This document shows, in pieces, positions 8,466 through 64,000 of a stretch of 64,000 bases of DNA. The translations under genes and the position numbers were made by a program. Below the pieces are notes generated by a model. It was given only the letters and a program-made list of their open reading frames with translations. It was not told where the DNA came from and made no database searches. Every line of letters starts with the position of its first letter. Position 1 is the first letter of the stretch. Location of the stretch: the NCBI GenBank assembly GCA_020637435.1, contig JACJVW010000001.1, positions 433,060-497,059 on the forward strand, given 5' to 3'. This stretch comes from Candidatus Woesearchaeota archaeon. GTDB taxonomy: Archaea; Nanobdellota; Nanobdellia; Woesearchaeales; JACJVW01.

Positions 8466-8755
8466 TGAAGAAGTATCCAAAAATAGTGCAATGTGACAAG
8501 CGAGGTCAGATAGTCATACCTAAAGACCTCCGAAATGAGCTCGGCATAGAAGAAGGCACTGGTTTTTGGATGTATGCAATCACCGATGAAGGTATTCTGC
8601 TCAAGAAGGTCGAAAACCCTGAGCTTGGGGAACACACCGACATGCTCCATGAGCTCAATGACAAAGCAGACAAGATAGATCTCTCACGTGAGAATCTTGG
8701 ACAGTCCATCGAGGAATACAAGAAGAAGAGGCAGGGCAACCTGGATGTAATATGA
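8465..8755 (+). CDS. AbrB/SpoVT/MazE-family swapped-hairpin DNA-binding protein (96 aa)
   Basis: KRGQIVIPKDLRNELGIEEGTGFWMY is the AbrB-type N-terminal beta-barrel motif, followed by an acidic C-terminal tail. Its stop overlaps the giant ORF start by 4 nt (ATGA at 8752-8755). Confidence 0.75.
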   Translation: MKKYPKIVQCDKRGQIVIPKDLRNELGIEEGTGFWMYAITDEGILLKKVENPELGEHTDMLHELNDKADKIDLSRENLGQSIEEYKKKRQGNLDVI

Positions 8756-44052: not shown

Positions 44053-44676
44053 GTGAGAGGTGAATCTATTTTGAATAAAAAAGCAGAAATGGGTATAGGT
44101 ACCTTGATTATATTTATCGCATTACTTCTGGTAGCAGCAGTCGCCGCTGGCGTCCTTATACAGACAACAGGATCTATGCAGGAAAAAGCATTGACGACCG
44201 GTGATCAGGCCAAAGCGCAGATAGCTACCAACGCATTGACAATAGAAGTCTCCGCGACTGATGGACAATCCGGTGAACTAAGTTATTTCACCCAAATCAT
44301 GAAACTTGCGCCCGGTTCAGACGAGATCAAACTTGACCAGGCTATCCTGACCGTAAGTACATACACAAGATCAGCAACGCTAACCTATGCAGGAGCTGGT
44401 GCTTTGTTGGAGAGAAACACAAGTGACGGTTTCTACACAAATGGTACTGCAGGAAAAGGTAATTATTCTGTAGAATACCTGCAACAAGGCAACAACTGGA
44501 TTGAAGGCAACCTCCAAAGAGGAGATGTTATCAAGATATACTTCGAAGCCCCAGTCAATGTTAGTGAAGACGAAAAGGTAAGGATAAACTTCATTCCAAA
44601 AATCGGAACACCTACACTTACTGAGTTCATAACCCCAGAGGTTATCTCAACTGAAAGAGTGTATCTGTACCCGTAA
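44053..44676 (+). CDS. flaB: Archaellin (archaeal flagellin FlaB-like) with a class III (type IV pilin-like) signal peptide; alternative TTG start at 44071
   Basis: KAEMGIGTLIIFIALLLVAAVAAGVLIQT matches the archaellin N-terminal consensus ([26 protein letters not shown]). The track start at 44053 is GTG. The TTG at 44071 follows the RBS more closely. Confidence 0.8.
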   Translation: MRGESILNKKAEMGIGTLIIFIALLLVAAVAAGVLIQTTGSMQEKALTTGDQAKAQIATNALTIEVSATDGQSGELSYFTQIMKLAPGSDEIKLDQAILTVSTYTRSATLTYAGAGALLERNTSDGFYTNGTAGKGNYSVEYLQQGNNWIEGNLQRGDVIKIYFEAPVNVSEDEKVRINFIPKIGTPTLTEFITPEVISTERVYLYP

Positions 44677-46450: not shown

Positions 46451-47008
46451 ATGGGAGAAATCAGCTACCTGGAAGAAGCTACAATAAAGAGAGTCATAAC
46501 TAGTGTCCAGAACTCCCGCGACCAGCTGATGATACTCCTTCTCTACGAACTTGGATGCAGCCTCAAGGAATTGCTCAACATCAGGCTCAGAGACATTGAT
46601 CTTGAAAAAGAACAGATTTCTATCACTTCCACATCCGGTACGAGCAGACAAGTCAGAGACAGCCTGATTAGCGCTCCCACAAAGGAACGTATAAGAAACT
46701 ATATAAACGCCAATAACCTTGAAAATCGTAAGACCGCATACCTGTTTACATCCTCCCACAACAGGCAGATGACCTTGCGAAGAGCGACCCAGATTCTCTC
46801 TTCTTCATTGGAATCACAGGGCTTAGGAGACCTTAGTCCGCAAGTGATAAAATATTCACATATTGTGAACGCCTACCGGAGAAATGTACCCATCAGTCTT
46901 ATAAGAGAACAGGTAGGTCTGACCAAAGAAAGACTCATTTCGATCCTATTGAGTATTGATGAGCCGAACGTCGGTTCGTACAAAGAGTTCCTGGAGGGGG
47001 TGCTCTGA
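46451..47008 (+). CDS. Tyrosine-recombinase (phage-integrase family) catalytic-domain-only protein, 185 aa, without a core-binding N-domain. The canonical C-terminal Tyr is not at the expected spacing
   Basis: Colinear with the XerC/D catalytic domain: RDQLMILLLYELGCSLKELLNIRLRDIDLEKEQISI (Arg-I region), KTAYLFTSSHNRQMTLRRATQIL, and LSPQVIKYSHIVNAYRR (HxxR region, with K in place of the first R). In LGHxxxxTTxxYTH the Tyr is replaced by LISILLSI. The stop overlaps the ATG of giant gene 2 by 1 nt. Confidence 0.55.
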   Translation: MGEISYLEEATIKRVITSVQNSRDQLMILLLYELGCSLKELLNIRLRDIDLEKEQISITSTSGTSRQVRDSLISAPTKERIRNYINANNLENRKTAYLFTSSHNRQMTLRRATQILSSSLESQGLGDLSPQVIKYSHIVNAYRRNVPISLIREQVGLTKERLISILLSIDEPNVGSYKEFLEGVL

Positions 47009-50000
47009 TGCGAAAAAGAGGTAACAATAAGACCCTCACGGTCATTTTGTTAGCTTTGCTTCTGACGATATTCACTATTTCTGCAGCTCCAAACATTGAC
47101 ATCAGGATCGACATGGCCACGGAGAACCGAAGCGTCGGCGATACTGTCCAGATAGGCATCTCCACCTACATCAATAATGTCATTGTACTTTCTTTGCCCG
47201 CCAAGGTATTCATCTCAGGCCCGGAAGGCTCATCCGAACTGGCGACCAGCGATACATTCAGAGGATTGCGCATAGGAAACTTCACTCCAACCCGTGCAGG
47301 AACATATACCATCACGGCCCAGGTCATCATCAATGGCCAACCGTATGAACAGTCAGACGAGGTCGAAGTGGCACAGCCACCTTATGCGTTCACCACAGAA
47401 TACCTGGTGAACGGTACTCTGCTACAGGCTCATATCACACAACCTGCAGACCGCACAGTAAGGATAAATCTGATCAGGGAATCGCAGATAATACCTTTAT
47501 GTGAAGCCGAGTGTGCCGCTGACTGCACATTTTCCTGCCCGCTCCCAGAACTAGACAGTGCCATCATACACCTGCAGACGCAGATTGACGCAGAACCGTA
47601 CCTCTACAGCACAACAGATATCGTAACTGCAGCTATGAAGAGTATCGAATGTGAATTCGTCGCCCCGAAATACGGACTCTACACAACAATACAACTCCCA
47701 CAAGAAGACCTTCTCGAAGCCTACATCACTGGCGACCGAACAGAGCAGATAACTGATGGAACGTTTACGACAGACGCACCCGGTGCATACACCCTAATGA
47801 TGCTGTATCTACAGGACAACACAACTGTTTCCTGCAGCAAGGACTTCACGGTCAGCGCTGACGGTGACGAAGCTCGTCTAAACTTGATCGATGACTATTT
47901 TGATCCTATCTACGCAAAGACCTATACCCTCTATAATATCGAAAAAGAAGGACATGCAAACATCTGCGATGAAGCATGGTATATTGATGATACAACGGTA
48001 CAGACCATCTCGTTTCCGGCCAACCTCTCCAGAGGTCAGCTCCTCTGCAAATCAGCTCCTGCCAATATGAGCAAGGCCGATGCTGAAACGTATGTAACCT
48101 TCCTTCGAAGCGGAGCCGCGACATTCTTCAACGTAGGCTTCAGCTCATTTGAATCGTACGCCTACATCCTCAAAGACTCAGTTGCGAAGGAGATACTTGG
48201 CCCCTACAACAAGACCATACATACGCAGAACTTCACCACCATAATCGGTCCGCCTGCTCTGTATGCGGTAGTGCACAAGAATATGGCAGAGTCGGAAACT
48301 GACTTAAGCGTGGGACCGGTACTGGTCATCCCAATGGAAGAGAATGCTTCCATAAGCTACATCAATGGCACTACCCTATTCATCCGGGAAAAGACAGCCC
48401 TGCAAAGAGAAGACATCTTCCAAAGCCAGGGAGTAAGATTTGTCCAAGAGTTGCAGCTAAAACCAAGGGAAGACACCATCACAGAGACAGACAAGCAGAT
48501 ACTCAGTGATGCGCAGACGATCGAACTCATCAGTCCAGAACTAAAGAAGATACATCTGCCCGCAGGCATCATACCCAAGGAGACTCCTCATGGCATGTAC
48601 ATGCTTCACGAGATCTTCTATGGCAACGCAAGCAGAGTAAGCAGGATAACTATCATAGGGACTGAAGCCAATCTGAGCATCAGCGAAGGCAAACAGAAGA
48701 ACGCGACAAAAGGCGATACAGTAAGATTCGTACATACGATCGTCAACTCGATAAGGGACGGTTCAGCCATCATTGAGGTGCAGATAGGAGACACTGCTGC
48801 GCAGGTAAGCGTAAACGTCATCGAAGGATCCATCGAAGTCCCCATCACTGATACGAACAACAACGGCATACCTGACTTAGGCATCATGTTGCCAGGAGAG
48901 GATAAAGAGATCCTGATTACAGCCATCGTCCCTAAGAATGCAAGCGCAGGAAATCACACTATCCCTATCACTGTGCAAGACCTGCAGCGAAGCATTGGAA
49001 ACACGGTCTATGATCTCATCCACGTAGAAGCTGACCTCTTCGAACCAGTCTACAGCAACGACCTTGACCTCTACGCTATCGAAGAGCATGAAGGACAATT
49101 GCAGATCCTTATTCAGAATAATTTCATGGATGAAAAAGAGGCTCAATTGACGTTGCACATAGGCAACAATAGCATTGTCGAGAATATAATCGTCCCAAAA
49201 GACAGCACATTCATGTTCACTTATCCTGTCGAGGATCTCTCCTCCAATGAGAAGATCGAAGCGGTGCTGACTGCATTTGGCGAATCGAACAAGAACAACA
49301 ACCAAAGAACATTCCTGCGTGCTCAGAGATGGACAGAAGACAGAAGTTATAGGAAGACATTGTACCTCACTGAGAAAGAGCATCAGGACCATGAACAGTA
49401 CAGATTCCGTGCATCTGCAGCTCGTGACGGCATGGATCTCTCATCCATCCGCCTTACCTACGCAACAGACACAACAGAAGGTATAGGTTATGCGTATCCA
49501 CTATTTTCTATCACCGCATACGATGAGAAGCAGGTCGACCTCATCATAGAGTTGAGTATGCTACCCAAGAACACGGTAGTTCCGTTATACATCTATTACG
49601 ATAAATCCGAAGCATCAATCCCCCCAAATACAAGCGCTCACCTGCCAGAGATCATCATCGACAACACCAATCGTACGGTGCAGATGAATGGGAGATGGGG
49701 TTCCGACTACGTCTCAAGAGAATACTATGGTTCAGGTTATCTTCATGATTTCGCAAGAGGCAAAGGAGAAAAATCTGTCATCTATGGCTTACAGGTACCT
49801 AAGTCCGACTATGAAGTCTACATGACGTATCCGACAGACCCTACGTTCTCAAAGCATGTACCTGTCTCAATAACAGGCACAGAGGGTACCCAGACTATCT
49901 ATATTGATCAAGACAGACGTCCACAGGATTGGACTTACCTTGGAGTATATGCCCTTGACAGCAACAGTCAGATTACTATCTCAAACGCAAAGACAGAAGG

Positions 50001-53000
50001 CCTCGTCGTAGCTGACGCATTCCGTCTTGTCCAAGTAGGGAGCTATGAACGATTCTCTGACGAAGAGAAATGGTTCATACCTGTACAAAAAAAGACCGAA
50101 TATATCTCTATCTTCGAAAACTCAACCCTCAAAATCAATACAACAGATATGACCAATATTACGGTGACCACCTCGATGCAGACAAACTACACCCTGGAGG
50201 AGAATAGCGTACTACTTGCTCCAATCTCAGATTTGACGGTGATGGTGCGAGGCAAAGTATGCAAAGTAAGTTGTTCATACAAAGAAAATACTTATGTCAT
50301 AGAAGTCATCAGGAAACAGTCACTTCTGCTCAAACCCTTCCCTTCGGTAAAGAAAGGCCAGGACGAGACAGAGGTACTCAATCTCTCTGCCTATCTGAGA
50401 CCCACAACACGCTTGCAGATAACAAATTCGACCATCAATGCATCCCTAAAAGAAAAAGTACTACACCTTGGACCCTCACCCGCCGGAGTCCATCGGATAA
50501 TTTTAATCGCGACAGATACCAATGTCACAGAACAGCTGCCGGCTTTGCTGGTGCAAGTCGCCCCTAAAGACACAGAGCAGACCATACAGGGCCACGCAGA
50601 GATAGGTCACCCGGTGCAATGGAAGAAGATAGTCATCAACGACACCACACAATTGCCTGTAGACGCAGCCAATATACGGGTAAACAACGGTAGCTCTTAC
50701 AGCTTTAGAGTGGACGAAAGGATCATAGATGCTCAGGAGATGGAGAAAGCAAAGGAAGATCGTGAGATTCTCAAAAAACTTAAAGCTTTCGAAGAGGAGA
50801 AACAGAACAGTAATTTCATAAGAGCGATGAGCATCAGCGTACAGAGTCTTGCTGCGCAGACACAAGTCCAGACAGACATAGACCTTACAAAAGTGCAGAA
50901 TACCACACTAGTGATGGAAGAGAATGCTACCTCATACATCATCGAATACACCACCCCCGCTCCAGACATTGCGATAAGGAGTGAAAGTGAAAAAGACTTC
51001 ACAAAGAAAAAAGATATTGTCGTCTTCAGTAATGTCACTTTCCACTACTACAATGTCACCTCCTACACTGATGTGGATGAATCCCTACCGGAACAGCTCC
51101 ACCTCTATTGGCATCGCCAGGAAGGTTCAGTCGATATCATCCATGACCCTCGATTGAAGGAACTTTTGGATGTGCAGCTCATCGACACAAATGCCAACGG
51201 ACTCATCGACAAAGTCCAGTGGCTCACCCCTCAACTTTCAGAACAGAATTTCTCGCTTGAGATAGACCTCACCATCCTCAATCTCCAGAGTTATCCGACC
51301 CTCTACAAGAATTGGACCGTCCTCTTCAACACTACTGGAACTGCCAACCTGACTATTTACACCCTCAACACCAGCTGGTCTGAATTCTACAACGACCTCT
51401 CCTCAACGCATGATGACCTCACCTTCCTCGATGTCAGATGTGGTGCCACCAGTAGATACGATGAGATCATCCTTCTGTTGGAGAATGGAAGTCAAAAATC
51501 TATTACAACAGTTGCTCCTACCGACCAGTTCGTAGTTGATGGCCTAAGAGTAGCTGATTGGAACTGCTCACAGACGGCAAGATGGGACAACCAGATTATC
51601 ACCACCGGTGTGCACATCCAGCGGTTTGAGTTCGGTAACGACATCCTGTATGCACGCAACTATGGTTTCCTTCTCTTTGAAACATTTGAATCCTATGCGA
51701 ACAACACAAATGCAACCGACTGGATAGACTATACTGACGACAGCCCGGTTACGCAGGGTGAGACCGCATTGACCTACGACAACGGCACGACGACCTCCAT
51801 AGTCATAGCCGCGGCCGCTGAAGAGTTCACAGAATACAACGGAACAGGAGCTCTGGCTTGGCATAGTTACGAAGTGAAAGGTGAACTTTGGATAGAGGGT
51901 AATACAAGTGGTAACTACGAGATCAATATCTATGCGTACAGCGATTTCAACGCGCCAGTTTCAAGAGACTATTATTCCCTGGAATTTATTCCATCCTACA
52001 CAGGAGGATTCAGGCTAAATGGCGACTCCAACACTTTCGTCATCAACAATCCAACCATCAACACCAGTGTCACCCCTCAATTTAACGTAACCTACTCTTT
52101 CAGATTCCTGGTCATGAACAATGGTGCGAACCGTGATCTTTACGCGATGATGTGGAAATCTAACGAGACAGAACCTTCATCATGGCAAGCACAGGCAAGA
52201 GATGTCCTGGCAGCAAACTCAGCGGGCACCATAGCATTCTCAGTCGCAAACGCCAAAGTGCACTTCGACAATATCATCGTGCAGAATGCGACCAGCATCC
52301 CGCAGATAACGATCATATCGCCACCTTACGGACCGCATGATGTCATAGACAATCTCTATTTCAACGTCAGCGTCGATAAGGACGCTGCAAACTGTAATGT
52401 CACTATCAATACGACATCCTACAATATGTCCCAGTGGAACACGACCCATTGGTATATGAACGTCACGCTCGGTGTCTATGGTACGCTTCCTGTTACCTTT
52501 TACTGTGAAGATGACTTTGGCAACAGCGGAAACAAATCGACTACCATCAGGCTCGGAACAAGTGCAATAACCATCCTTGCGCCGCTCAATGAGACGACAA
52601 CCGACTATACTCCATTGCTCAATGTCACCCTCAACGACACTTATGATGTATGGTACAGTCTTGACTATGGTGCGAACAGTTCCATAATACCTTCAGTGGA
52701 CAATTTCACCACCATCCTTGGCCCACTCAATCAGAGCCAGCACCTCATCTATGTTTACATTAATGACTCTGGTGTTATCGACTACACCTATGTGTACTTC
52801 TCCATAGATGTCCCGGTACCCAACGCCACCATGACGCTCTATGATGAAGGGATCAACCCCAGCGCCGCTGATGACCCTCTTGTAGACATTAAACTGCAAT
52901 CAATCTATGCGTACACCTACAGATATTCCTGCAACACAACAGCATGGACAGAATGGAGAACATGGACAGGTAATGGTTGTAGCGGTACCTGTGATTGGTA

Positions 53001-56000
53001 TGTCAATTTCAACCTCACCAACGCAAGCCTTGGCTGCAATGTGTCCGACGGTCCTAAATGGGTATACGCAGAGGTCCGTAACTACTTCAATGAGACAGGA
53101 TATGCCAATGACTCCATCAACATAGACCTAAGTCCGCCAAGGATAAACTTGACAACACCGCTGAATTATTCTCTTGCAACAACGCAAAAAGTAACCTTCG
53201 GTGTTAATGCATCAGACCACTACAGCAGCGTGCAGTACTGTCAGCTCTATGTTAATGGGTCTATCTGCGGAGGACTCATCTCCCCAATAGTAGATGATGT
53301 GATAAAAAATGTTACCAAGAACATCACGACCGACTGCAACTTTGTCGGAACAGGAGAGTATGTATGGAGAATGTACTGTAGGGATGACACCAACAGTCAC
53401 TGGTCAAACTACAGCGAGTACAGGACCTTGTTCGTGGATGTGGATGGCCCGGTCATCAACGCATCGTTAAGTACAAATAAGATAGGTTTCAATCAAAGCA
53501 TCCTCATCAACGCGACCATCACCGAACAATACAGCAATATCAGCAATGTCAGTGCTAATATCACCTATCCAAACGGAACTTCAAGACTATTTGCGATGAG
53601 CAATACTTCCTCCACAGATTATTACTACTACTTCACAGACACCTGGGGCGGAGGTTTATACCAGGTCCGCGTCCGCGCGAATGACACCGCCGGATGGAAA
53701 ACCACCTCGTCAGTGAAGCGATTCAATGTCAGCGTAAACGCATCAGTCTACATACGCACAGAACTCGGCATCTATGCACCGGGCATGCAGGTCAACCTGA
53801 CACAAAGGATGCCCGGTTGGATAGATGAGAATTGGTTATACCGATTACCCTTGGCAGTAACAGAAGAAAGCGGCACCGACCTGATACAGCACCAGATCAG
53901 GATAACATTGAACACTTCCGCGCTCATCACTGAAGGCAAAATGAATGCAGACTGTTCAGACATACGGTTCGGTACAGACAATGCATCATCCCTCTACTTC
54001 TGGCTGGAATCAGGATGTAACACCGACTACACCACTTATTGGGTGAAGATGGATGAGCTCGATGCGCTTGACACCAAAGCATTATACATGTACTATGGCA
54101 ATCCAACTGCGACGAACGCATCTAACGGTACAAGGGTATTCCAATGGTTCGATGACATGGAAACCTTCACCGGTTGGGTAGCAGAAGGCACAGGTAGCGT
54201 AGCCCAAAGCACGGCAAATGTCTACGAAAGGGCATACGCTCAGATTAAACAGACCAATTGCGATCCTGCAGGAGGTTCCAAGAATCTGGGTTTCACCCTC
54301 AACAGGACCAACTGGCTAGTGGAGTTCCATAGATACAGGGGTAGTGGTGACATCGCCTCATGTACAGTAGATAGGACTGGCGTTGAGACCGCAGCAGACA
54401 ACGGGTACAGCGGCGCCTTCCAGCACGGCGGTGGCTCGGACATATGGGTCGACCGAAGGACAGGCGGCGGTGCAACTGTTCTGGACAGTTCAAGCATCAT
54501 AGATATACTCGACACCTGGCATATTTCCCAGCTGCTGCTCACAGATGACGAGATAAGGCATGTCATTCTTGATACCAACTACACCATCGTGGAACAGACA
54601 CAGGCGATTGATACAACCTATACAACATTCGACCAGGTAGCTATCCGCGGTGGACGCCCATACTATATCGACATGATTAAGATTAGGAAATATGCAAGCG
54701 CAGAACCTACATTTACTATAGGAAGCGAACAGGGCGTCTTCGAAAACAGATCCCAGGTAAGTGGATCCGACAATTTCACCGCCTATTACTACCTCAGTGT
54801 CTATAATGAATCAGGAGGAAGCTTCCTCCTGGACAAGCACGTAGTAGAGTTCCTGGCAAACACGACTGAGCCGCTCCTGTTGCTTAACCCTATGTGGCTT
54901 GGTTACGGAGCATGGAATACCGGAGCATACTATGACGGCGTCTATCAGGCAAGAGCTACGCTTACCGACCCGAACAACAATACCCTTATCAACGAAGACG
55001 GAGAACTCCTTGAATCAAGATTCAACTTCACCATAGACAGGTATCCCGATATACTTGGCGCAGGCATCACTCCTACGTTCAACGGATGGGGAGAGTCCTT
55101 TACCTTGCAGGCAAATGTAACGTATCCGCTTCCTATAAATAGGGTCTGGGCCAACATCACCTGGGCTAACGGATCAGTACAGGTAGTCAATCTTCCTTTA
55201 GCAGAAGACATAACCTACGAAGCCACATTGACAGATATCTGGGATACCGGCCTGCACAGCATCCTCTTCGCATCAAACAATTCTGCAGGATATACTTCCA
55301 CTGAGGGTCCGTATGGATTCTCTATAAACGGCAACTCATCCATCACGCTTGCGACCGTCAAAGACCTGTACTACCCAAACAAAGTCATCGAGATTACTTC
55401 CCCCTACCAGTGGTGGAACACGTCATGGAGATACAGAGTCATCATCAACCTTGACCAAAAAGGCTATGACAGAGATGATATCTGGATGCGCCACAACATC
55501 AACATATCTGACATACTTGCTTCCTCGGGTGTAAGTGGAACACTCGATTACAATTCTCTTAGATTGGTCGAGTACACTGCCCAGGGTGGTGCAGCCACCT
55601 ACAATGGTACGCTGACCGATGATACGAAGTATCTCGTCCCCTTCGAAGTTGACCAACTCAAGGATTATGACAGTCTATACAACGCCAAGATCCATCTTGA
55701 ATGGATAGCGAACGGCACTACCGAATCTGCGATTTCCAGACAGTGGGCATTGTACTTCGAGATAGACGAGTCCAACACCGGTGTATTTTACAGTATTGAA
55801 CGACCGACTGAGTTCATAGGCTATCCTGGAACGACAAGTGAACACCTCTTCGCAGAAGTCTATGGTGATGGTACCTTTGGTGCTGAGACACTGATAGTGG
55901 ACCTCTTGGGTGATAACCAGATGTATGGAAGTGACCCTGTAGCAGATTTCGACAATGACGGAGATTTTGACATCCTTGTAGGTTACAGCGAAGATACAGG

Positions 56001-59000
56001 TCCCATTTTTGACTACCGTCTCTACGAGCAGATATTTGACAGTCCGCTTACCTTCATCAGCCAAGGTGTCATCTTCGACGGCCTAAACAATCAGTACTTT
56101 GAGGACTCGGTGACGGGTGACTGGAACGATGACGGATGGATGGATACTATCCTCGCTACAGACACTAACCGTCTATATGTCCTCCTCAATAACAAGACAG
56201 GCGGTTTCGAGCTTGGACCAGCCCTTTTTGGAGACCCCAACACCCGTGGCAAAGACGTGGGAGATTTCAACGAAGACGGATTGCAGGACTTCGCCTACAT
56301 GGAATCAGCAGGTATCCTCTATATTTACTTCTCAAATGGAGACGGAACATTCAGGATATACCAGGAAGGGTTCAGCAAATCTGCCCAGGCATGGTCCAAT
56401 TGCCTCGCCGTAGCTGACTTCGATAATGATGGTCATGATGACATAGTAGCAGGCGACAACAATGAGATATATTTCCTACAAGGTAATGGTCTGGGCAACT
56501 TCACAAGCCTGGGCAATGTGCTTAATATGGGGGCCACAAACTATGTTTCGTGCGACAATATTGATGCGGACAGAGACGGTAACCAGGACCTGGTCTTCTC
56601 CCTCTATGGTGAACAGCAACAAGACTACTACAAAGGTTACGGAAATGAGACTTTCACCTATTTCTCAACTTTCGGTAATCAGCAATCGATGGGTATAGAA
56701 GCCCCCGCATATCTTCCTACTGTAATATCACACTCGTCAAGAGCAGAAAAATATGCAAATTCCACAACACAGTCAAGGATCCTAAATACAGGAGCGGCCC
56801 CATTCAAAGGCTATCTCTTCACGCAGATAAGATTCTGGAATAGTTCAGATGTAGTCTGGGAACCTATCGCAACCATAATCAACGAATCAAATGCCTCTAC
56901 TGCAAGAGAGGTAGGCCGTGCATCTGCACTGAACATCAAAGATGCGTTCGACTCGTACAGTCGTTGGAATGTATCGAGTAATAAACTAGGTCAGTACCAA
57001 GTCGTCGTAGAATTCAGGCACCTTAATGGCAGCATTCATGTTATGGACGACGGAACTATGCTCAATATGACCTACAATTTCTCCGTAGAGCTTGATACCC
57101 TGGGACCCGACATACAGGAACTAAGGAAGAATCCATCTACAACGGGCTTTGGCCAGGAAGTTATCATTGAAGCCGTTCTTGAAGATGAAGGCAATGGAGT
57201 AGATAGTGCATGGATGAACATAACACGTCCGGACAATGTGTCTGCAATGTTCAACCTGACACAGATATCGACCAGCTTGTGGAGATACACCTACAATGAC
57301 ACCTGGATTTGGGGCAATTACAGCATCCAGTTCTACACCAACGACACTGGCGGTTACAATTCATCACTAAACTCATCCTTCTTTGTAAGAGGTTCAGTAC
57401 TCATGAACGCTACTACCGAGCAGCTTATCTACAATCCAAATCAGACGGTAAGGCTTACCAGCTCATTCAGCTGGTGGAACCAGACCTGGCACTACCGGGT
57501 ACCACTCATCATGGAATCAGCTGATTTCAACAGGTACAAATCGATCGTAGGTGGATACCTCAACTTTACGGAAAAACTTGCAGAATTGGATTGCGGCGCG
57601 ACCGCATGCTCAGGAGAGTTCATCAACAGCAGCTTGCGTGTCATAGAATATGGCACGGATGGTCAACCCATCATATATAACAGCAGCAAGACTGGGCAGG
57701 AAGCGTATACGATACCCTTCCTCTTTGACTATGAAGCCGGATACCAACGCATAACAAATGCATATGCAGACATCAGATTCAATGCTCCAGGCTTGACTGA
57801 CAGAGACGAAGAAAGGTACTTCATGATCTATTTCGATATCCTTGAGTTTGGCAGTAAGGCCATCTCCCAAAGGACAGATACGCTCATGCCCTCAGATGGA
57901 AGCATATTCTCCTTCATAGCGGTAAGTGATGATGATAATGATGTGTATGTCATAGAGAATTATCAGAATGGCACATGGGGTATCATCGATGACATAGGAG
58001 AGCCTTCAGGCACCAACAACCGCCGAGCCATCATCCAGGGAGATTTCGACAACGATGGTGATGAGGATATCATACTGGGAGTGCCGCAGAATGGTTTCGA
58101 AGTGTATTTCTACAATCATACGACTCCGGGAACCTTCGTAAATGAAGGGGTTATCGCAAACATAACTGATGGAAGCAGCGCAATCTCCATGGGTGGTGCA
58201 GTCGGTGACTTCAACGGCGACGGAAACCTGGACTTCGCCATGTCACCCAATGATATCTATTTTGATGTCTTCTTCGGCGACGGAAAAGCACAATTCATAC
58301 TTGACGCAACATACAATATCTGTGGAGCTAACGACGCCCGTGGGCAGGATGCAGCTGACGTGGATCTTGACGGTGACATAGACATAATTGCAGCTTGTAC
58401 GGGAAACCCTGATCTCTACATTTTGACCAACGATGGAACAGGAACATTCCTTGCTACCAGCCTTACCGTGACAAATGTGCTCAACGACCCTTACGGTCTT
58501 GCGGTTGCGGACTTCGACAACGACACCCTGCCAGACATAGTCGCATCCTACGGCGATACCGACACCATGTATTTTTACAAAGGTAACGGCGATGGAACAT
58601 TTAACAATGGCGGTGCGCTATCGATAACGACACAGGGTTCGTTCTATCCGGGGCTCGATGCATTCGATTTCGACAATGACGGCCTACAGGACCTTGTTGC
58701 TGCTGGCCGATTCCCAAACAATATCTACTACTTCAAAGGTGACGGCGATGGAACATTCACCTACATCAAGAGCATTGGCACAACAAGCGATGATACCTAT
58801 ACCGTGTCCGCGCCTATGGGTACAATCCCTTCATCCTTCAGAACATTGACTACAGAAGAGACGACCAACGTCACGACGCTCTCAAGTATCGTCAACGAGG
58901 GATCAACAGACCTCGGCGGATACCTCTGGGTAGGCATAGACTATCATAATGGCAGTGAATGGTCGCTCAATGACACCATCATTAATGACTTATCCATGTA

Positions 59001-62000
59001 CAATATGACGACCATAGCTCCAGGTGGACTACTTCTGATAAAAGACAGAGTGGAAAAAGCAGGCAATTGGTTCACAAACAGTAGCACCTATGGGTGGTAC
59101 AGATACAGGATCGAGCTCAGGGATATCTACGATAATCTCATCATCGGTGACAATGGTTCCGTTTGGTCAACCACAGCCCAGATCGCATTGAACACGACAG
59201 CGAACTTCTCGCTTGAACCCGATCTTGACGGACCGGATATCCTCTCCTTCGCTGTCAGTCCAAATACCACAGGTTATGGTGATACAGTCACCATTTCAGC
59301 ATTCCTAAGCGACCCCTCAGGTGTCAACAATGCGACAGTAAACTTGACATATCCCAATGGTACAGTGAAAACGCTGCAGCTCATAAATATTTCCAGCTAT
59401 CAGTGGCAGTATGTCTTTAATGATACCTGGAAACGTGGAACGCACAACTTCTCCCTAATCGCTGAAGATATCTACACCAATATCAATACTCAAAACACGA
59501 GCCTCGATATCCTCTCCAACCTTAGCATAGAGATTGCTACCTTGCAAGATACCTATCTGCCCGATCAGCTCGTTACGCTGACCAGTCCATTCTCGTGGTG
59601 GAACAGCACATGGACCTATCGTAAACAGGTTACTATGACTGCACAATCGTACCCTCGGCATAACGCTTACATTAAGCAGATCGTCAACCTGACCTATGAG
59701 CTTGAACAATTGGGCGTTACAGGAACCTTCGAGAACCAGAGCATACGGATAGTTGAATATAATGCCGTCACGGGTGAACCTAAGATATTCAACGGTTCAG
59801 CAAGTGAAAAGTACATAGTGCCGTACAAGCTTACTCTCAACAGCACGCACGATAGCATCAGTAATGCGGTGGTAGCCCTTGAATGGAATGCAAATGCGAC
59901 CACAGAAGCCAATCAGCAAAGAACATACTTCATCTACTATGACATACAGGAAAATTCTCAGAAGCCTGCAACAACATACCTAAGCACCGTCTACAACAGT
60001 CCATGCACAGAAGACTACGTCATCACCGGCGATGTGAACGGAGACCTTTACTATTTAAGATCCTACAGGAATGGGACCTTTGGTCCGCAATCATGGGTAG
60101 GCGATGATGACAGCAACAACTGGGGTATCGGAATCGCTGACTTCGACAACGATGGTGACTGTGACTTCGTCACCGGCGGCAATGATGGTTTCATTGACTA
60201 CTATGAAAAGACCGGTTCAGGAAATTCCTTCTCCGCTACAACGAACCTGCACTTTTTCAACGATGGGGGATACGGTATGGACATAGCCGTCGCTGACTAC
60301 GATAACGATGGTAACTATGACTTTGTAATCTCAGGCAACAACAATGTATTCACTGTTTTCCTTGGTGATGGGGACGGTACATTCACCTCATCTACCTTCA
60401 CAGGCTACGTCGAAGAAGGACGCGGTAAAGATGCCGGTGACATGAACAGAGACGGGTTCATGGACTTTGTCGCAGGCTATGACCTCGGTATGATTTTTGT
60501 CTACTACGGCAATGGAGACGGCACCTTCAATGAATCGGACATCAACTGGGACATAGGTAATACGGCATACGGAATCTCGGTAGCTGACCTTGACAAAGAT
60601 GGCAATCTTGATATCTGTGCTGCACAGAGCAACGGACAGATAAGATGCAGGTTCGGTGATGGTCAGGGTAACTTTGGAAATGAGATCATCACCGGCGCAG
60701 ATCCCGGAGACTACGCTCCGATGGATGCATGGGACATCAACCTTGACGGCTACATCGATATAGTTGCAAATTTCTATAGTAGTGAACAAGTCTTCGTCTA
60801 CTTCGGCAACGGAACAGGCTATCTTACCGCATCGGCATACAACCCGGTAGGTACAGCCATCGGCACGAACAGGATGGGTATCGCTGGCCCACTCATCAAA
60901 GACCCTGAATCTACAGTAACGTACCAAAGCGAGCTCAATGCAGAGAGTCCACTAAAGTCACGAGTACTCAATACTGGTTCCACATCATCAGGTTCATACA
61001 CTTTCATCACCATAGAATACTTCAACACTACAACCGGAACGTGGAACCACACGGCACACATAGTCAATGATCTTCAGAGCTACAGCATGAATAACCCTCT
61101 CGGCATCGGCGGATTGCTAAATTTGCAGGCAGAGTTCGCGACAGCTGGAGCCTGGAATACTTCTAGTTATACCAATGGTACATATCGCGTCCATGCTGAG
61201 CTTCGAAACTTGTACAATGAGACCCTCCATAACGACGATGGTTCAGCTGTCAATATAACCTACAACTTTACGCTTAAATATGACACAGACCCACCTGCAG
61301 TAGAATATCTAAACATCAATCCAGCAGAGACTGGATTCGGAAGCGACGTCATCGTGACCATAGACCTTGATGACGAAACAGGTGTCCACAATGTCTCTGC
61401 GAACATCACGTATCCAAACGGCACTCAATTCAGAGGGGATTTCGCTAAAAGGACGACAAAAAGATGGTCTTTCACCGCATCAGACCATTGGATTGTAGGC
61501 ACCTACAATGTCAGCATAAATTATAATGATACGCTTGGCTTTGCCAATCAGACCAACACCAGTTATCTCATCAATACGAGTATCAATCTGACCATCGCTA
61601 CAGAGCGCAACACGTACTTCGGAAATGAATCAGTTACATTGACCAGTCCATTTGTGTGGTGGAATACGTCCTGGAACTACAGGAACACCTTTACGGTCGA
61701 TCCAAGCCCTGCAGTCAGGCATGATGTCTATGTGCAGAAAATGTTCAACTTTACCGACCTGCTTACCCAGCTTGGCGGCAACGGTATCTTCGACCTAAAT
61801 TCCATACGCATAGTCCAGTACAACAGCGATGGCACGCCCAAAGTATTCAACGCATCCAGAAGCGGCGATGACAGATATAACATACCAGTCTCGTTTGCAC
61901 AGGCTTCCGGGTTCCACACCCAGACCAATGCGTATGGCAAGGTTGAGTTCATAATCAATGGTACGCTGACAGCGAACACGCAAAAGACCTATGCGATCTA

Positions 62001-64000
62001 CTTCGACCGCGAAGAGAACGGTATTAAACCGGTCACATATCTTAGCTACAATGAACCTGAAGAGTTCTACATAGTGTCCAACGACAATGGAAATGTCTAC
62101 CAGCTCCTTCACAACGGAGGTACGAGCTTCGATAGTCCGGTCATCGTCATCGACCTTCCGGGAACTGCAGATGAATCTGCACGAGGTGTAGGCGTTGCCG
62201 ACTTTGATCATGACGGAGACTATGACATAGTTATAGGTGGAGACAATGCGGGAAGTTACGCTCAATTTTATCTCTACAGGAACAATGGAGATGGTTCTTT
62301 CACGCCAATCTGGACTTCAGCCCCAGAGTTCGTCAATGCATTGATAACTCCTATAGGCGTAGGTGACTTCGATGGAGATGGTTACTTCGATTTCTCCGTG
62401 GGAGGAAATAATGATAATCTCCTCGTCTATTTCAACGAGAATGGTACAACCTTCACAAGGACGAAAATTGGAACATCCAACGTGGACCCCAACACTAGAG
62501 GCAAAGACGCTGGCGACATTGATGGTGACGGATTCGACGACCTTATATATGTGGAAAACTCTGACAATGTCTATATCTACTTCTCCAATCAGGACAGAAC
62601 TTTCAGCAGGTCTGCCCTTGACGCTGACGCGATACCGGCCGACCCCTACTGCATAGCGGTAGCGGATTACGACAACGATAACCTTCTCGATATTCTCATC
62701 TCAGGAAACAATGGTGACATATACTGGTACAGAGGTAACCTTACAGGGTCGCTTGGCTACTTTGACAATGATGTGTACACCGGTACTGATGTCAATAATT
62801 ACCAGGGTTGCGACAACTATGACTTCGATGATGATGGCAATATGGACTTCATCATGTCCAGATGGAACAGCGATGAAACATGGTACTATAGGGGAGACGG
62901 AAACGGCGGATTTACAGGTACAATGCTTGGTGACAGTTCTGATGGCATAAATGACGCTATGGGTGCGGCAGCTCCGGACAGGCACGAAGGAAGCATGACC
63001 CTTGCGTCACCAGAAGAGAAGTTCTCATCTACTACTGCATCAAAAGCGCAAGATATCATAGACACACGGTCTAATCTGTATGTCTACATGAGCGTCCAGA
63101 GATGGAATTCATCAGATTCGATATGGGAGAATACGACCTCCATCGTCAACAGCACCTACAACACGATATTCGCAGGAAGCCTTCTCGACCTCAGTTCACT
63201 CTGGCAGGCAGCAGGAGCATGGAATACAACGAGCAGTCCGGAAGGATGGTACCGAGCCTATGTAGCGCTACGTGATCCAGGAAACAAGACCCTTCTCAAC
63301 TATGATGGTAAAGCTCTAAACGCTTCTTACAACTTCAGCATCTCTACTGATAACGTAGGTCCTTCGTACACGAACTTCCTGGCATTCCCCGACCCTGCAG
63401 GTTATACAAACAATATCACAGTCCGGATAGACGCTCAGGATGAGACAGGTATCGGTTCTCTATGGGCAAACATAACCTTCCCCAATGGCACCGTATTGAC
63501 CAAAAATATGACACCGGTAACTGCCGCAAGGTACACAACCTGGTTCAACCAGACCTGGCGATATGGAAGCTACAAGATAGAAGTGTTCGGAAATGATTCC
63601 AATGGCTTCCAGAGCAACACATCCAAGATTATTGTTGTAGCAGCAAATGCGACTTTCTCCACCTTGCTCAACAAACAGCTCTTCTATCCCAACGAGTCCG
63701 TAGTCTTAAGCGGCACCTTGAACAATGGTCAGTATGCTAACTTCACCTATTATCTCAAGATGGGTATTGAGTACTACAATACGACCGACTGGGTCTTGAT
63801 TGATATGGTTGTCAATGAGACCACACCAAGGAAATTAAACGTCACCAAGACCCTGAATCTGGGAGCCGTCTGGAACGCGGCCGGAGCATGGAACACTTCC
63901 CTCAATAAATCGGGCACCTACAGACTTTTCACCAGATTGACAGATGGTGCACAGTATAATGGTACCGAACTTTACCTCCAGCAGATAAACACAACTCAGA
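47008..64000 (+). CDS. Second giant secreted surface protein, more than 5660 aa, open at the window end. It has a signal peptide, an internal module homologous to the giant-1 N-terminus, Ig-like domains, and 5 or more mega-repeats of about 690 aa each (Ig-like 'NITYPNGT', DUF2341 'WWNxSWxYR', ConA-like, FG-GAP beta-propeller)
   Basis: Read through by hand in frame 1 from the ATG at 47008 to position 63999 without a stop, and absent from the ORF track, which lists only closed ORFs. The signal peptide is MRKRGNNKTLTVILLALLLTIFTISAAP. DUF2341-like motifs include WLYRLPLAV...DIRFGTDN...YMYYGNP, ITSPYQWWNTSWRYR, LTSSFSWWNQTWHYR, LTSPFSWWNSTWTYR and LTSPFVWWNTSWNYR. Many FG-GAP repeats are present (VADFDNDGDFDILVG, VGDFNEDGLQDFAY, VADFDNDGHDDIVAG and others). 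Confidence 0.85.
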   Translation, partial: MRKRGNNKTLTVILLALLLTIFTISAAPNIDIRIDMATENRSVGDTVQIGISTYINNVIVLSLPAKVFISGPEGSSELATSDTFRGLRIGNFTPTRAGTYTITAQVIINGQPYEQSDEVEVAQPPYAFTTEYLVNGTLLQAHITQPADRTVRINLIRESQIIPLCEAECAADCTFSCPLPELDSAIIHLQTQIDAEPYLYSTTDIVTAAMKSIECEFVAPKYGLYTTIQLPQEDLLEAYITGDRTEQITDGTFTTDAPGAYTLMMLYLQDNTTVSCSKDFTVSADGDEARLNLIDDYFDPIYAKTYTLYNIEKEGHANICDEAWYIDDTTVQTISFPANLSRGQLLCKSAPANMSKADAETYVTFLRSGAATFFNVGFSSFESYAYILKDSVAKEILGPYNKTIHTQNFTTIIGPPALYAVVHKNMAESETDLSVGPVLVIPMEENASISYINGTTLFIREKTALQREDIFQSQGVRFVQELQLKPREDTITETDKQILSDAQTIELISPELKKIHLPAGIIPKETPHGMYMLHEIFYGNASRVSRITIIGTEANLSISEGKQKNATKGDTVRFVHTIVNSIRDGSAIIEVQIGDTAAQVSVNVIEGSIEVPITDTNNNGIPDLGIMLPGEDKEILITAIVPKNASAGNHTIPITVQDLQRSIGNTVYDLIHVEADLFEPVYSNDLDLYAIEEHEGQLQILIQNNFMDEKEAQLTLHIGNNSIVENIIVPKDSTFMFTYPVEDLSSNEKIEAVLTAFGESNKNNNQRTFLRAQRWTEDRSYRKTLYLTEKEHQDHEQYRFRASAARDGMDLSSIRLTYATDTTEGIGYAYPLFSITAYDEKQVDLIIELSMLPKNTVVPLYIYYDKSEASIPPNTSAHLPEIIIDNTNRTVQMNGRWGSDYVSREYYGSGYLHDFARGKGEKSVIYGLQVPKSDYEVYMTYPTDPTFSKHVPVSITGTEGTQTIYIDQDRRPQDWTYLGVYALDSNSQITISNAKTEGLVVADAFRLVQVGSYERFSDEEKWFIPVQKKTEYISIFENSTLKINTTDMTNITVTTSMQTNYTLEENSVLLAPISDLTVMVRGKVCKVSCSYKENTYVIEVIRKQSLLLKPFPSVKKGQDETEVLNLSAYLRPTTRLQITNSTINASLKEKVLHLGPSPAGVHRIILIATDTNVTEQLPALLVQVAPKDTEQTIQGHAEIGHPVQWKKIVINDTTQLPVDAANIRVNNGSSYSFRVDERIIDAQEMEKAKEDREILKKLKAFEEEKQNSNFIRAMSISVQSLAAQTQVQTDIDLTKVQNTTLVMEENATSYIIEYTTPAPDIAIRSESEKDFTKKKDIVVFSNVTFHYYNVTSYTDVDESLPEQLHLYWHRQEGSVDIIHDPRLKELLDVQLIDTNANGLIDKVQWLTPQLSEQNFSLEIDLTILNLQSYPTLYKNWTVLFNTTGTANLTIYTLNTSWSEFYNDLSSTHDDLTFLDVRCGATSRYDEIILLLENGSQKSITTVAPTDQFVVDGLRVADWNCSQTARWDNQIITTGVHIQRFEFGNDILYARNYGFLLFETFESYANNTNATDWIDYTDDSPVTQGETALTYDNGTTTSIVIAAAAEEFTEYNGTGALAWHSYEVKGELWIEGNTSGNYEINIYAYSDFNAPVSRDYYSLEFIPSYTGGFRLNGDSNTFVINNPTINTSVTPQFNVTYSFRFLVMNNGANRDLYAMMWKSNETEPSSWQAQARDVLAANSAGTIAFSVANAKVHFDNIIVQNATSIPQITIISPPYGPHDVIDNLYFNVSVDKDAANCNVTINTTSYNMSQWNTTHWYMNVTLGVYGTLPVTFYCEDDFGNSGNKSTTIRLGTSAITILAPLNETTTDYTPLLNVTLNDTYDVWYSLDYGANSSIIPSVDNFTTILGPLNQSQHLIYVYINDSGVIDYTYVYFSIDVPVPNATMTLYDEGINPSAADDPLVDIKLQSIYAYTYRYSCNTTAWTEWRTWTGNGCSGTCDWYVNFNLTNASLGCNVSDGPKWVYAEVRNYFNETGYANDSINIDLSPPRINLTTPLNYSLATTQKVTFGVNASDHYSSVQYCQLYVNGSICGGLISPIVDDVIKNVTKNITTDCNFVGTGEYVWRMYCRDDTNSHWSNYSEYRTLFVDVDGPVINASLSTNKIGFNQSILINATITEQYSNISNVSANITYPNGTSRLFAMSNTSSTDYYYYFTDTWGGGLYQVRVRANDTAGWKTTSSVKRFNVSVNASVYIRTELGIYAPGMQVNLTQRMPGWIDENWLYRLPLAVTEESGTDLIQHQIRITLNTSALITEGKMNADCSDIRFGTDNASSLYFWLESGCNTDYTTYWVKMDELDALDTKALYMYYGNPTATNASNGTRVFQWFDDMETFTGWVAEGTGSVAQSTANVYERAYAQIKQTNCDPAGGSKNLGFTLNRTNWLVEFHRYRGSGDIASCTVDRTGVETAADNGYSGAFQHGGGSDIWVDRRTGGGATVLDSSSIIDILDTWHISQLLLTDDEIRHVILDTNYTIVEQTQAIDTTYTTFDQVAIRGGRPYYIDMIKIRKYASAEPTFTIGSEQGVFENRSQVSGSDNFTAYYYLSVYNESGGSFLLDKHVVEFLANTTEPLLLLNPMWLGYGAWNTGAYYDGVYQARATLTDPNNNTLINEDGELLESRFNFTIDRYPDILGAGITPTFNGWGESFTLQANVTYPLPINRVWANITWANGSVQVVNLPLAEDITYEATLTDIWDTGLHSILFASNNSAGYTSTEGPYGFSINGNSSITLATVKDLYYPNKVIEITSPYQWWNTSWRYRVIINLDQKGYDRDDIWMRHNINISDILASSGVSGTLDYNSLRLVEYTAQGGAATYNGTLTDDTKYLVPFEVDQLKDYDSLYNAKIHLEWIANGTTESAISRQWALYFEIDESNTGVFYSIERPTEFIGYPGTTSEHLFAEVYGDGTFGAETLIVDLLGDNQMYGSDPVADFDNDGDFDILVGYSEDTGPIFDYRLYEQIFDSPLTFISQGVIFDGLNNQYFEDSVTGDWNDDGWMDTILATDTNRLYVLLNNKTGGFELGPALFGDPNTRGKDVGDFNEDGLQDFAYMESAGILYIYFSNGDGTFRIYQEGFSKSAQAWSNCLAVADFDNDGHDDIVAGDNNEIYFLQGNGLGNFTSLGNVLNMGATNYVSCDNIDADRDGNQDLVFSLYGEQQQDYYKGYGNETFTYFSTFGNQQSMGIEAPAYLPTVISHSSRAEKYANSTTQSRILNTGAAPFKGYLFTQIRFWNSSDVVWEPIATIINESNASTAREVGRASALNIKDAFDSYSRWNVSSNKLGQYQVVVEFRHLNGSIHVMDDGTMLNMTYNFSVELDTLGPDIQELRKNPSTTGFGQEVIIEAVLEDEGNGVDSAWMNITRPDNVSAMFNLTQISTSLWRYTYNDTWIWGNYSIQFYTNDTGGYNSSLNSSFFVRGSVLMNATTEQLIYNPNQTVRLTSSFSWWNQTWHYRVPLIMESADFNRYKSIVGGYLNFTEKLAELDCGATACSGEFINSSLRVIEYGTDGQPIIYNSSKTGQEAYTIPFLFDYEAGYQRITNAYADIRFNAPGLTDRDEERYFMIYFDILEFGSKAISQRTDTLMPSDGSIFSFIAVSDDDNDVYVIENYQNGTWGIIDDIGEPSGTNNRRAIIQGDFDNDGDEDIILGVPQNGFEVYFYNHTTPGTFVNEGVIANITDGSSAISMGGAVGDFNGDGNLDFAMSPNDIYFDVFFGDGKAQFILDATYNICGANDARGQDAADVDLDGDIDIIAACTGNPDLYILTNDGTGTFLATSLTVTNVLNDPYGLAVADFDNDTLPDIVASYGDTDTMYFYKGNGDGTFNNGGALSITTQGSFYPGLDAFDFDNDGLQDLVAAGRFPNNIYYFKGDGDGTFTYIKSIGTTSDDTYTVSAPMGTIPSSFRTLTTEETTNVTTLSSIVNEGSTDLGGYLWVGIDYHNGSEWSLNDTIINDLSMYNMTTIAPGGLLLIKDRVEKAGNWFTNSSTYGWYRYRIELRDIYDNLIIGDNGSVWSTTAQIALNTTANFSLEPDLDGPDILSFAVSPNTTGYGDTVTISAFLSDPSGVNNATVNLTYPNGTVKTLQLINISSYQWQYVFNDTWKRGTHNFSLIAEDIYTNINTQNTSLDILSNLSIEIATLQDTYLPDQLVTLTSPFSWWNSTWTYRKQVTMTAQSYPRHNAYIKQIVNLTYELEQLGVTGTFENQSIRIVEYNAVTGEPKIFNGSASEKYIVPYKLTLNSTHDSISNAVVALEWNANATTEANQQRTYFIYYDIQENSQKPATTYLSTVYNSPCTEDYVITGDVNGDLYYLRSYRNGTFGPQSWVGDDDSNNWGIGIADFDNDGDCDFVTGGNDGFIDYYEKTGSGNSFSATTNLHFFNDGGYGMDIAVADYDNDGNYDFVISGNNNVFTVFLGDGDGTFTSSTFTGYVEEGRGKDAGDMNRDGFMDFVAGYDLGMIFVYYGNGDGTFNESDINWDIGNTAYGISVADLDKDGNLDICAAQSNGQIRCRFGDGQGNFGNEIITGADPGDYAPMDAWDINLDGYIDIVANFYSSEQVFVYFGNGTGYLTASAYNPVGTAIGTNRMGIAGPLIKDPESTVTYQSELNAESPLKSRVLNTGSTSSGSYTFITIEYFNTTTGTWNHTAHIVNDLQSYSMNNPLGIGGLLNLQAEFATAGAWNTSSYTNGTYRVHAELRNLYNETLHNDDGSAVNITYNFTLKYDTDPPAVEYLNINPAETGFGSDVIVTIDLDDETGVHNVSANITYPNGTQFRGDFAKRTTKRWSFTASDHWIVGTYNVSINYNDTLGFANQTNTSYLINTSINLTIATERNTYFGNESVTLTSPFVWWNTSWNYRNTFTVDPSPAVRHDVYVQKMFNFTDLLTQLGGNGIFDLNSIRIVQYNSDGTPKVFNASRSGDDRYNIPVSFAQASGFHTQTNAYGKVEFIINGTLTANTQKTYAIYFDREENGIKPVTYLSYNEPEEFYIVSNDNGNVYQLLHNGGTSFDSPVIVIDLPGTADESARGVGVADFDHDGDYDIVIGGDNAGSYAQFYLYRNNGDGSFTPIWTSAPEFVNALITPIGVGDFDGDGYFDFSVGGNNDNLLVYFNENGTTFTRTKIGTSNVDPNTRGKDAGDIDGDGFDDLIYVENSDNVYIYFSNQDRTFSRSALDADAIPADPYCIAVADYDNDNLLDILISGNNGDIYWYRGNLTGSLGYFDNDVYTGTDVNNYQGCDNYDFDDDGNMDFIMSRWNSDETWYYRGDGNGGFTGTMLGDSSDGINDAMGAAAPDRHEGSMTLASPEEKFSSTTASKAQDIIDTRSNLYVYMSVQRWNSSDSIWENTTSIVNSTYNTIFAGSLLDLSSLWQAAGAWNTTSSPEGWYRAYVALRDPGNKTLLNYDGKALNASYNFSISTDNVGPSYTNFLAFPDPAGYTNNITVRIDAQDETGIGSLWANITFPNGTVLTKNMTPVTAARYTTWFNQTWRYGSYKIEVFGNDSNGFQSNTSKIIVVAANATFSTLLNKQLFYPNESVVLSGTLNNGQYANFTYYLKMGIEYYNTTDWVLIDMVVNETTPRKLNVTKTLNLGAVWNAAGAWNTSLNKSGTYRLFTRLTDGAQYNGTELYLQQINTTQ

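Follow-up and report, generated by a model that had tools for sequence, protein, structure and literature searches.

We analyzed a 64,000-nucleotide stretch of DNA from a Candidatus Woesearchaeota archaeon (contig JACJVW010000001.1, positions 433,060 to 497,059; hereafter, the window), whose last 17 kb encode the N-terminal part of a giant protein. The region is probably the central part of an N-glycosylated surface protein of approximately 9,370 residues in which an array of four consecutive units serves attachment or host recognition. Each unit is predicted to consist of an immunoglobulin (Ig)-like β-sandwich, a second β-sandwich that carries the motif WWNxSWxYR (the WWN domain), a six-bladed FG-GAP β-propeller, and a closing β-sandwich.

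The initial annotation of this region had described a protein built from at least five tandem mega-repeats of about 2.1 kb. The periodicity itself is well supported. Self-BLAST with 250-residue pieces gave 42 off-diagonal alignments (E values down to 1e-41, identities of 24–43%), the offsets of which cluster at approximately 688–704 residues (about 2.07–2.1 kb) and multiples thereof; none of these alignments starts before residue 2088. A profile of the unit identified four complete copies, at 55027–57084, 57085–59211, 59212–61272, and 61273–63339, each scoring above 1000 bits, and gave no match upstream of residue 2141 or in the other giant open reading frame (ORF) of the window. The window thus holds four full units rather than at least five; the outermost two stretches previously taken for units share just the Ig-like and closing domains with the array. 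The landmark motifs were found where they had been reported, with NITYPNGT-type motifs at 53554, 55150, ~57220, 59338, 61399, and 63466, WWNxSWxYR at 55411, ~57472, ~59596, and 61657, WLYR at 53833, and AGAWN-type motifs at ~54900, 61144, 63211, and 63880. Pairwise identity among the four units is 29–35%. A search for a DNA-level repeat returned only motif-sized matches of up to 52 nt at 60–84% identity. Because the DNA itself is not repetitive, the repeat is visible in the protein only and is not an assembly artefact.

Comparison with related genomes indicates that the array is old. A scan of one genome per species yielded five loci, with three Woesearchaeota metagenome-assembled genomes (MAGs) among their sources, including the complete 1.13-Mb genome CP060219.1 (L001). 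All five relatives contain exactly four contiguous units as a block. The reading frame is open over the whole 20.7-kb locus (>6,900 residues) in four of the five, and in four of the five the block is followed by 230–1,540 residues of other sequence and then by one to three more units. In the fifth (L004 1–14485, encoding the 5,700-residue homologue P0121), the frame ends 150 residues after unit 4, which may reflect truncation of the allele, a frameshift, or a break in the assembly. The window protein aligns collinearly, from residue 759 to residue 5661, with the ORF of CP060219.1 (44% identity across 5,017 residues). Window units 1–4 are 49, 55, 57, and 55% identical to L001 units 1–4, respectively, whereas identity to the other units of that genome is approximately 30%; the block therefore predates the divergence of the lineages. 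As judged from these alignments, each unit has been shown to be retained individually, without homogenization, and the four-unit block to be ancient. Recent repeat expansion or misassembly is ruled out by the missing DNA-level repeat together with the finding that the units are positional orthologues.

The more distant loci show a less regular pattern. Compared with L002–L005, window unit 3 is 41–43% identical to unit 1 and 39–40% identical to unit 3, and window unit 1 has no clear counterpart, with 30–33% identity to all units. These values hint at old unit replacement or shuffling inside the four-unit block. The contigs of two of the relatives, L004 (CAZPXC010000009.1) and L005 (CAYXZQ010000001.1), are labeled as MAGs of a "Methanosarcinales archaeon". 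This label may be due to mis-binning, or it may be a hint of physical association between the two organisms.

The anatomy of a unit was examined in an AlphaFold2 model of unit 3, based on 12 aligned rows that combine units of the window with homologous ones (mean predicted local distance difference test score [pLDDT] 80.4, predicted template-modeling score 0.74). In the model, the Ig-like sandwich is followed by a short linker (unit residues 108–127), the WWN sandwich (128–245), a low-confidence linker (246–268), the propeller (269–558), and the closing sandwich. The coordinates of these domains and of the other features of the giant gene are compiled in the table.

Table. Features of the giant gene and of its repeat array, in window coordinates.
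Feature	Coordinates	Strand	Details
Giant gene	47008..64000, cut by the window end	+	First 5,664 of ~9,370 residues encoded in the window
Variant module	53428..55023	+	532 residues; Ig-like, true DUF2341, unassigned ~190-residue stretch, perhaps concanavalin A (ConA)-like, closing β-sandwich; no propeller
Pfam DUF2341 (PF10102) match, the sole one in the protein	53950..54165	+	E 3.4e-19; 69.5 bits (cutoff 23.4)
Mega-repeat unit 1	55024..57093	+	690 residues; unit profile 1059 bits; FG-GAP_3 E 4.5e-23
Mega-repeat unit 2	57094..59211	+	706 residues; unit profile 1018 bits; FG-GAP_3 E 3.3e-31
Mega-repeat unit 3	59212..61272	+	687 residues; modeled with AlphaFold2
Unit 3, Ig-like β-sandwich with NLTYPNGT motif	59212..59532	+	Model residues 1–107; 7–8 strands; pLDDT ~85–93
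Unit 3, WWN β-sandwich (WWNSTWTYR...) with one helix	59593..59946	+	Domain-only model pLDDT 89.8
Unit 3, FG-GAP β-propeller, predicted six-bladed	60016..60885	+	24 strands; loops at 60139, 60295, 60439, 60586, 60733
Unit 3, closing β-sandwich with AGAWNT...Y.R motif	60886..61272	+	Model residues 559–687
Mega-repeat unit 4	61273..63339	+	689 residues; unit profile 1080 bits; FG-GAP_3 E 4.8e-25
Short module	63340..63999	+	Ig-like domain joined directly to closing sandwich; no WWN domain or propeller; interrupts the array

The assignment of FG-GAP domains proved correct for all four true units. FG-GAP_3 (PF13517) matches each of them with 82–108 bits against a cutoff of 26.9 (E values from 5e-23 to 3e-31), and Pfam gives no FG-GAP match in 53428–55023 or 63340–63999. 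Every unit contains exactly five Ca2+-type loops of the form DxDxDGxxD, not the six or seven read previously, and loop positions 1, 5, and 9 are Asp in 27–28 of the 28 aligned units from six genomes. The propeller had been described as seven-bladed. In the unit 3 model it comprises 24 strands, which correspond to six four-stranded blades, and a 50-position blade profile matches exactly six times in each of the four units (five full matches and one N-terminal partial match, in which the first strand and the loop are missing). A final strand at unit residues 554–558 would close the ring. We therefore regard the propeller as predicted to be six-bladed, with a predicted blade of approximately 48 residues.

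In profile searches of PDB sequences, the propeller profile matched best to a secreted esterase (8w20, E 5.5e-22). Further matches include CRTAC1 (9etn, E 1.5e-17), the N-acetylglucosamine (GlcNAc) lectins PVL and AAL2 (2bwm and 4tqj, E 4e-13 to 1e-9, with 4e-13 for PVL), and integrin alpha subunits (integrin alpha-4, E 7e-6). A Foldseek search with the whole unit ranked CRTAC1 first, followed by ROS1 and DDB1, with NanB sialidase at rank 10; it also returned many Sec13/Seh1 chains with target-normalized TM-scores of 0.55–0.67, and the extender region of an adhesion protein (6xi3) is among the matches. NanB, Sec13, Seh1, and the YWTD domains of ROS1 are six-bladed propellers; integrins and PVL have seven blades.

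The WWN domain had been assigned to DUF2341 in every unit. A true Pfam match is present in the 53428–55023 module only; the Pfam DUF2341 model fails to recognize the WWNxSWxYR domain in the four true units, where the link to DUF2341 is apparent solely at the level of profile–profile comparison. At E ≤ 1, the Pfam model matches none of 42 members of the WWN family and none of 10 full-length homologues. In hhalign, a 42-member WWN alignment and a 7-member alignment of the first-module type (that of 53428–55023) place the WWN domain on the DUF2341 region with 92% probability (E 6e-7, 109 columns), the aligned columns running from the WxYR strand through the YYGN/YFD strand. A four-sequence WWN alignment compared with the DUF2341 region of the window was not significant, significance being reached only with the richer alignments. 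Among solved structures, nothing matched the domain-only model significantly (best E 0.047). These profile comparisons lead us to conclude that WWN domains constitute a family of their own, remotely related to DUF2341, for which the databases hold no model.

The size of this family emerged when 1.84 billion cluster representatives were searched exhaustively with HMMER and a combined Ig and WWN profile: 1,199 proteins matched at E ≤ 1e-3, of which 41 reached E ≤ 1e-30. Among the best 150 of the 1,199 matches, 95 have a full WWN domain, located within the first 120 residues in 62 of the 95, mostly in sequon-rich proteins of ~1,700–2,000 residues. FG-GAP loops follow only 15 of the 104 WWN domains in these best 150 matches. 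Word-indexed searches with WWN-domain alignments returned nothing, and a word-indexed protein search with unit 3 returned generic FG-GAP proteins, the best of the matches listed having 34% identity, none spanning the unit, and all having at most 1,203 residues.

The remaining domains of the unit are less readily classified. The Ig-like domain, an assignment that we can uphold, is supported by the β-sandwich in the AlphaFold2 model and by weak Big_13 matches, which reach 28.4 bits (cutoff 27) over the multi-unit protein and stay below the cutoff for single units. A search with 26 copies of the closing sandwich gave no consistent Pfam match and no sequence match in the PDB, and an NCBIfam search of the units found nothing. 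A ConA-like domain had also been placed in every unit. Laminin_G gives no match in the four units even at E ≤ 1, and the unit 3 model has no jelly-roll between the WWN domain and the propeller. A ConA-like stretch is accordingly excluded for the four units and is plausible for the 53428–55023 module only.

This first module differs from the units in lacking the propeller, and the unit profile matches 53428–55032 at the Ig end and the closing end only. Modules of the same type recur, sometimes twice, in other giant proteins. DUF2341 is matched by five of seven copies of the type, and 3keto-disac_hyd, a member of the ConA clan, by one of the seven (E 4.5e-4); hhalign of the first module gave no significant result against the Laminin_G_3 region in the window's second giant protein. 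At the other end of the array, the profile matches 63340–63981 at positions 3–124 and 592–674 only. The array had been said to continue past the window. It is in fact interrupted at 63340 by the short module, and further units later in the gene are indicated indirectly, by orthology with a Woesearchaeota genome: the last 220 residues are 49% identical to the stretch behind unit 4 in the L001 ORF, residues 4669–4878, after which more units follow.

The start and length of the giant gene were defined from several observations. A single reading frame runs without a stop codon from 46963 to the window end. Its first in-frame ATG is at 47008, preceded by GGAGGGGG, and the encoded N-terminus, MRKRGNNKTLTVILLALLLTIFTISA, resembles a Sec-type signal peptide or membrane anchor. 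A public gene call on Logan contig SRR12358676_115595 (221,299 bp) places the start at window position 47113, giving a product of 9,335 residues from which the signal peptide is omitted; the gene would occupy roughly positions 161,700–189,900 of that contig. We prefer 47008 because the homologue P0121 likewise begins with a signal peptide and because GGAGGGGG is Shine-Dalgarno-like. The length of approximately 9,370 residues follows from adding this earlier start to the 9,335-residue call, and the gene accordingly ends approximately 11 kb past the window. A scan of metagenome contigs with the gene tail gave as its sole match a 29%-identical relative, and an exact 39-mer was absent from a viral contig collection. 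The ATG at 47008 shares the sequence TGATG with the stop codon of the upstream ORF (46451–47008, +), which encodes a 185-residue protein of the Phage_integrase family with the catalytic domain only. This overlap suggests translational coupling of the integrase-like gene with the 28-kb surface-protein gene.

Several features of the protein point to the cell exterior. Apart from the signal peptide or membrane anchor (residues 8–30), no stretch of the 5,664 residues is strongly hydrophobic. The protein is acidic and contains 212 N-x-S/T sequons, or 3.74 per 100 residues compared with 1.36 expected from its composition; cytoplasmic neighbors have 0–1.3 per 100 residues. The signal peptide, the lack of a further membrane segment in the available sequence, and the excess of sequons together lead us to predict that the protein is heavily N-glycosylated and resides at the cell surface, either secreted or anchored. 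Residues 882–1008 form a Golvesin_C domain.

The window contains a number of other genes. A second giant protein of 5,078 residues is encoded at 8752–23988 (+); it begins with a signal peptide and includes 101 cysteines, a Laminin_G_3 domain, a MopE motif, and a transmembrane segment at approximately residues 4680–4710, followed by a cytoplasmic tail of ~370 residues in which a helical motif "...GWPxEL(I/V)..." recurs with no Pfam match. Residues 25–322 of this protein (8824–9717) are homologous to residues 1190–1551 of the 47008 protein (50575–51660), with 29% identity and an E value of 2e-33, so that one module outside the mega-repeats is common to both giant proteins. An archaellin/pilin-like protein (44053–44676, +; Arch_flagellin, E 1.6e-27) is encoded 2.3 kb upstream of the giant gene, and the literature connects large DUF2341 proteins with type IV pilus loci of archaea (PMC4858521). 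Also encoded nearby is a PAN-like AAA ATPase (42653–43798, +) that includes a proteasomal OB domain; a proteasome activator has been noted beside nanohaloarchaeal giant-protein genes (PMC10266531). The window also encodes a UPF0182 protein, and a search of it for tRNA genes found none. Neighboring proteins correspond to NCBI entries MCB9362285–MCB9362296, annotated as "Candidatus Woesearchaeota archaeon" and located on a contig of 782 kb.

We infer a role in adhesion or host recognition because the relatives of the propeller include lectins and integrins and because similar roles have been proposed for DUF2341 and DPANN giant proteins. Archaeal DUF2341 large proteins were proposed to be pilus-tip adhesins (PMC4858521), those of ultrasmall Patescibacteria to function in adhesion or host interaction (PMC11809585), and the giant surface proteins of DPANN nanohaloarchaea to bind hosts (PMC10266531). 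By extension, the window protein would project from the cell as a long beaded fiber in which Ca2+ would rigidify the propellers adjoining the DUF2341-like domain. The propellers may then act as several binding heads that differ from one another and recognize glycans or proteins on the surface of a host cell or substrate, and the whole would act as the attachment or host-recognition protein of a symbiont. Several points weigh against this assignment. The adhesin function is drawn from domain analogy, and FG-GAP propellers occur in enzymes too, as the esterase label of the top PDB match illustrates. The window ends before the C-terminal ~3,700 residues, where an anchor or an enzymatic or ATPase domain could sit. 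The count of six blades is taken from a model predicted with a 12-row alignment rather than from a solved structure. Finally, the propeller is the most conserved domain between orthologues (53–67% identity; the Ig-like and closing domains are at 36–60% and fall below the propeller in three of four units), and this makes it unlike a fast-evolving specificity determinant. A more specific proposal, that the four positional units are four different host-recognition heads derived from a six-bladed FG-GAP propeller and the DUF2341-related WWN family, forming a DPANN-type module for attachment that would determine, through its specificity, the host range of Woesearchaeota, is tentative and rather doubtful. 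We found no prior description of a six-bladed FG-GAP propeller or of the WWN domain family, and our literature search found no paper naming DPANN together with FG-GAP.

The conservation of the propeller would also suit a structural component of the envelope, such as a surface-layer (S-layer)-like or sheath protein, or a passive spacer, in which the repeats contribute length and stiffness, Ca2+ provides stability only, and there is no specific ligand. Invariant Ca2+ loops fit such a role, and the protein is sequon-rich and acidic like archaeal S-layer glycoproteins. A single-copy protein of ~9,370 residues with individually kept, ~30%-identical units nevertheless does not resemble the S-layer proteins known to form lattices, its nearest relatives by sequence are lectins and integrins, and a window that encodes another, different giant surface protein is more in line with a repertoire of adhesins; we consider this explanation unlikely. 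A device for host manipulation or secretion similar to SPEARE proteins, in which the repeats bind the host and a C-terminal membrane and VirB4/TraG-like ATPase part beyond the window performs the actual function, is quite improbable. The size is close to that of SVXNc_0300 (9,409 residues), which has a signal peptide and then Ig-like domains (PMC10266531), the PAN-like ATPase gene lies 3.2 kb upstream in keeping with the same report, and the residues beyond the window leave space for an ATPase part. Neither an ATPase nor a transmembrane segment can be seen, however, in the 5,664 residues available from the window or in 6,900 residues of each orthologue, and no sequence similarity to SPEARE-type proteins was observed.

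Two further explanations carry even lower probability. The esterase annotation, the single match of a first-module homologue to a 3-keto-disaccharide hydrolase, and the Golvesin_C domain could point to a carbohydrate-active scaffold whose propellers or flanking domains degrade polysaccharides of a host or of the environment. Pfam and NCBIfam detect no catalytic domain in any unit, and the conserved residues are those of the Ca2+ loops along with structural tryptophans and glycines, which makes an enzyme a very improbable solution. That the architecture is an artefact of assembly or annotation, for example, a mis-joined repeat array or a pseudogene, might be suspected from the metagenomic origin of the contig and from the different start chosen by the gene caller. 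Units of ~30% identity offer no DNA repeats to mislead an assembler, the frame is unbroken over 17 kb, the adjacent upstream ORF is found on two independent Logan contigs, and the other window proteins checked occur on two or three contigs and in the NCBI MAG. Collinearity of the architecture in five other genomes effectively refutes an artefact.

Woesearchaeota are abundant, uncultured archaea with small genomes that are thought to depend on hosts not yet identified. A 28-kb gene represents approximately 2% of a genome of 1.1–1.8 Mb, the size range of related genomes, and together with the 15-kb giant gene nearby it constitutes a large investment in the cell surface. The domain map defines four non-identical and evolutionarily stable propeller modules that could serve as recombinant targets in a search for host ligands. 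The WWN domain represents a sizeable family absent from Pfam, and the six-bladed propeller, if true, is an unusual form of the FG-GAP fold.

By analogy, the protein appears to belong with the giant modular surface or adhesin-like proteins of ultrasmall symbionts, as a variant. Like the DUF2341 large proteins of Patescibacteria and of the type IV pilus loci of Methanococci (MJ1470-type), it is giant and secreted, with a role in adhesion or host interaction proposed (PMC4858521, PMC11809585), and it shares with them the true DUF2341 domain of the first module and, at the level of the profile alignment, the WWN domain. It differs in that its four units carry the divergent domain followed by a propeller instead of a ConA-like domain, and no pilus-assembly genes were seen in the window. 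The SPEARE proteins of nanohaloarchaea are similar in their DPANN origin, their length of ~9,400 residues, their order of signal peptide and Ig-like domains, and their proposed host binding (PMC10266531); FG-GAP propeller modules are not described there, and we saw no sequence relationship. The bacterial giant adhesins SiiE, LapA, MpIBP, and those of the 6xi3 type are likewise very long, Ca2+-dependent extracellular fibers rich in β-sandwiches, as the window protein is predicted to be. Their repeats are Ig-like domains of ~100 residues that are highly alike, whereas the repeat described here is a 690-residue, four-domain module with ~30% identity between copies and positions kept between species. 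The propellers of PVL, AAL2, CRTAC1, and integrins resemble those of the window units, which match both Pfam FG-GAP_3 and Pfam FG-GAP (PF01839) above threshold, in family assignment and in the DxDxDGxxD loops between blades. Compared with the integrin and PVL type, the window propellers have six predicted blades of ~48 residues and five Ca2+ loops each, and they are set inside a four-domain module that is itself tandemly repeated.

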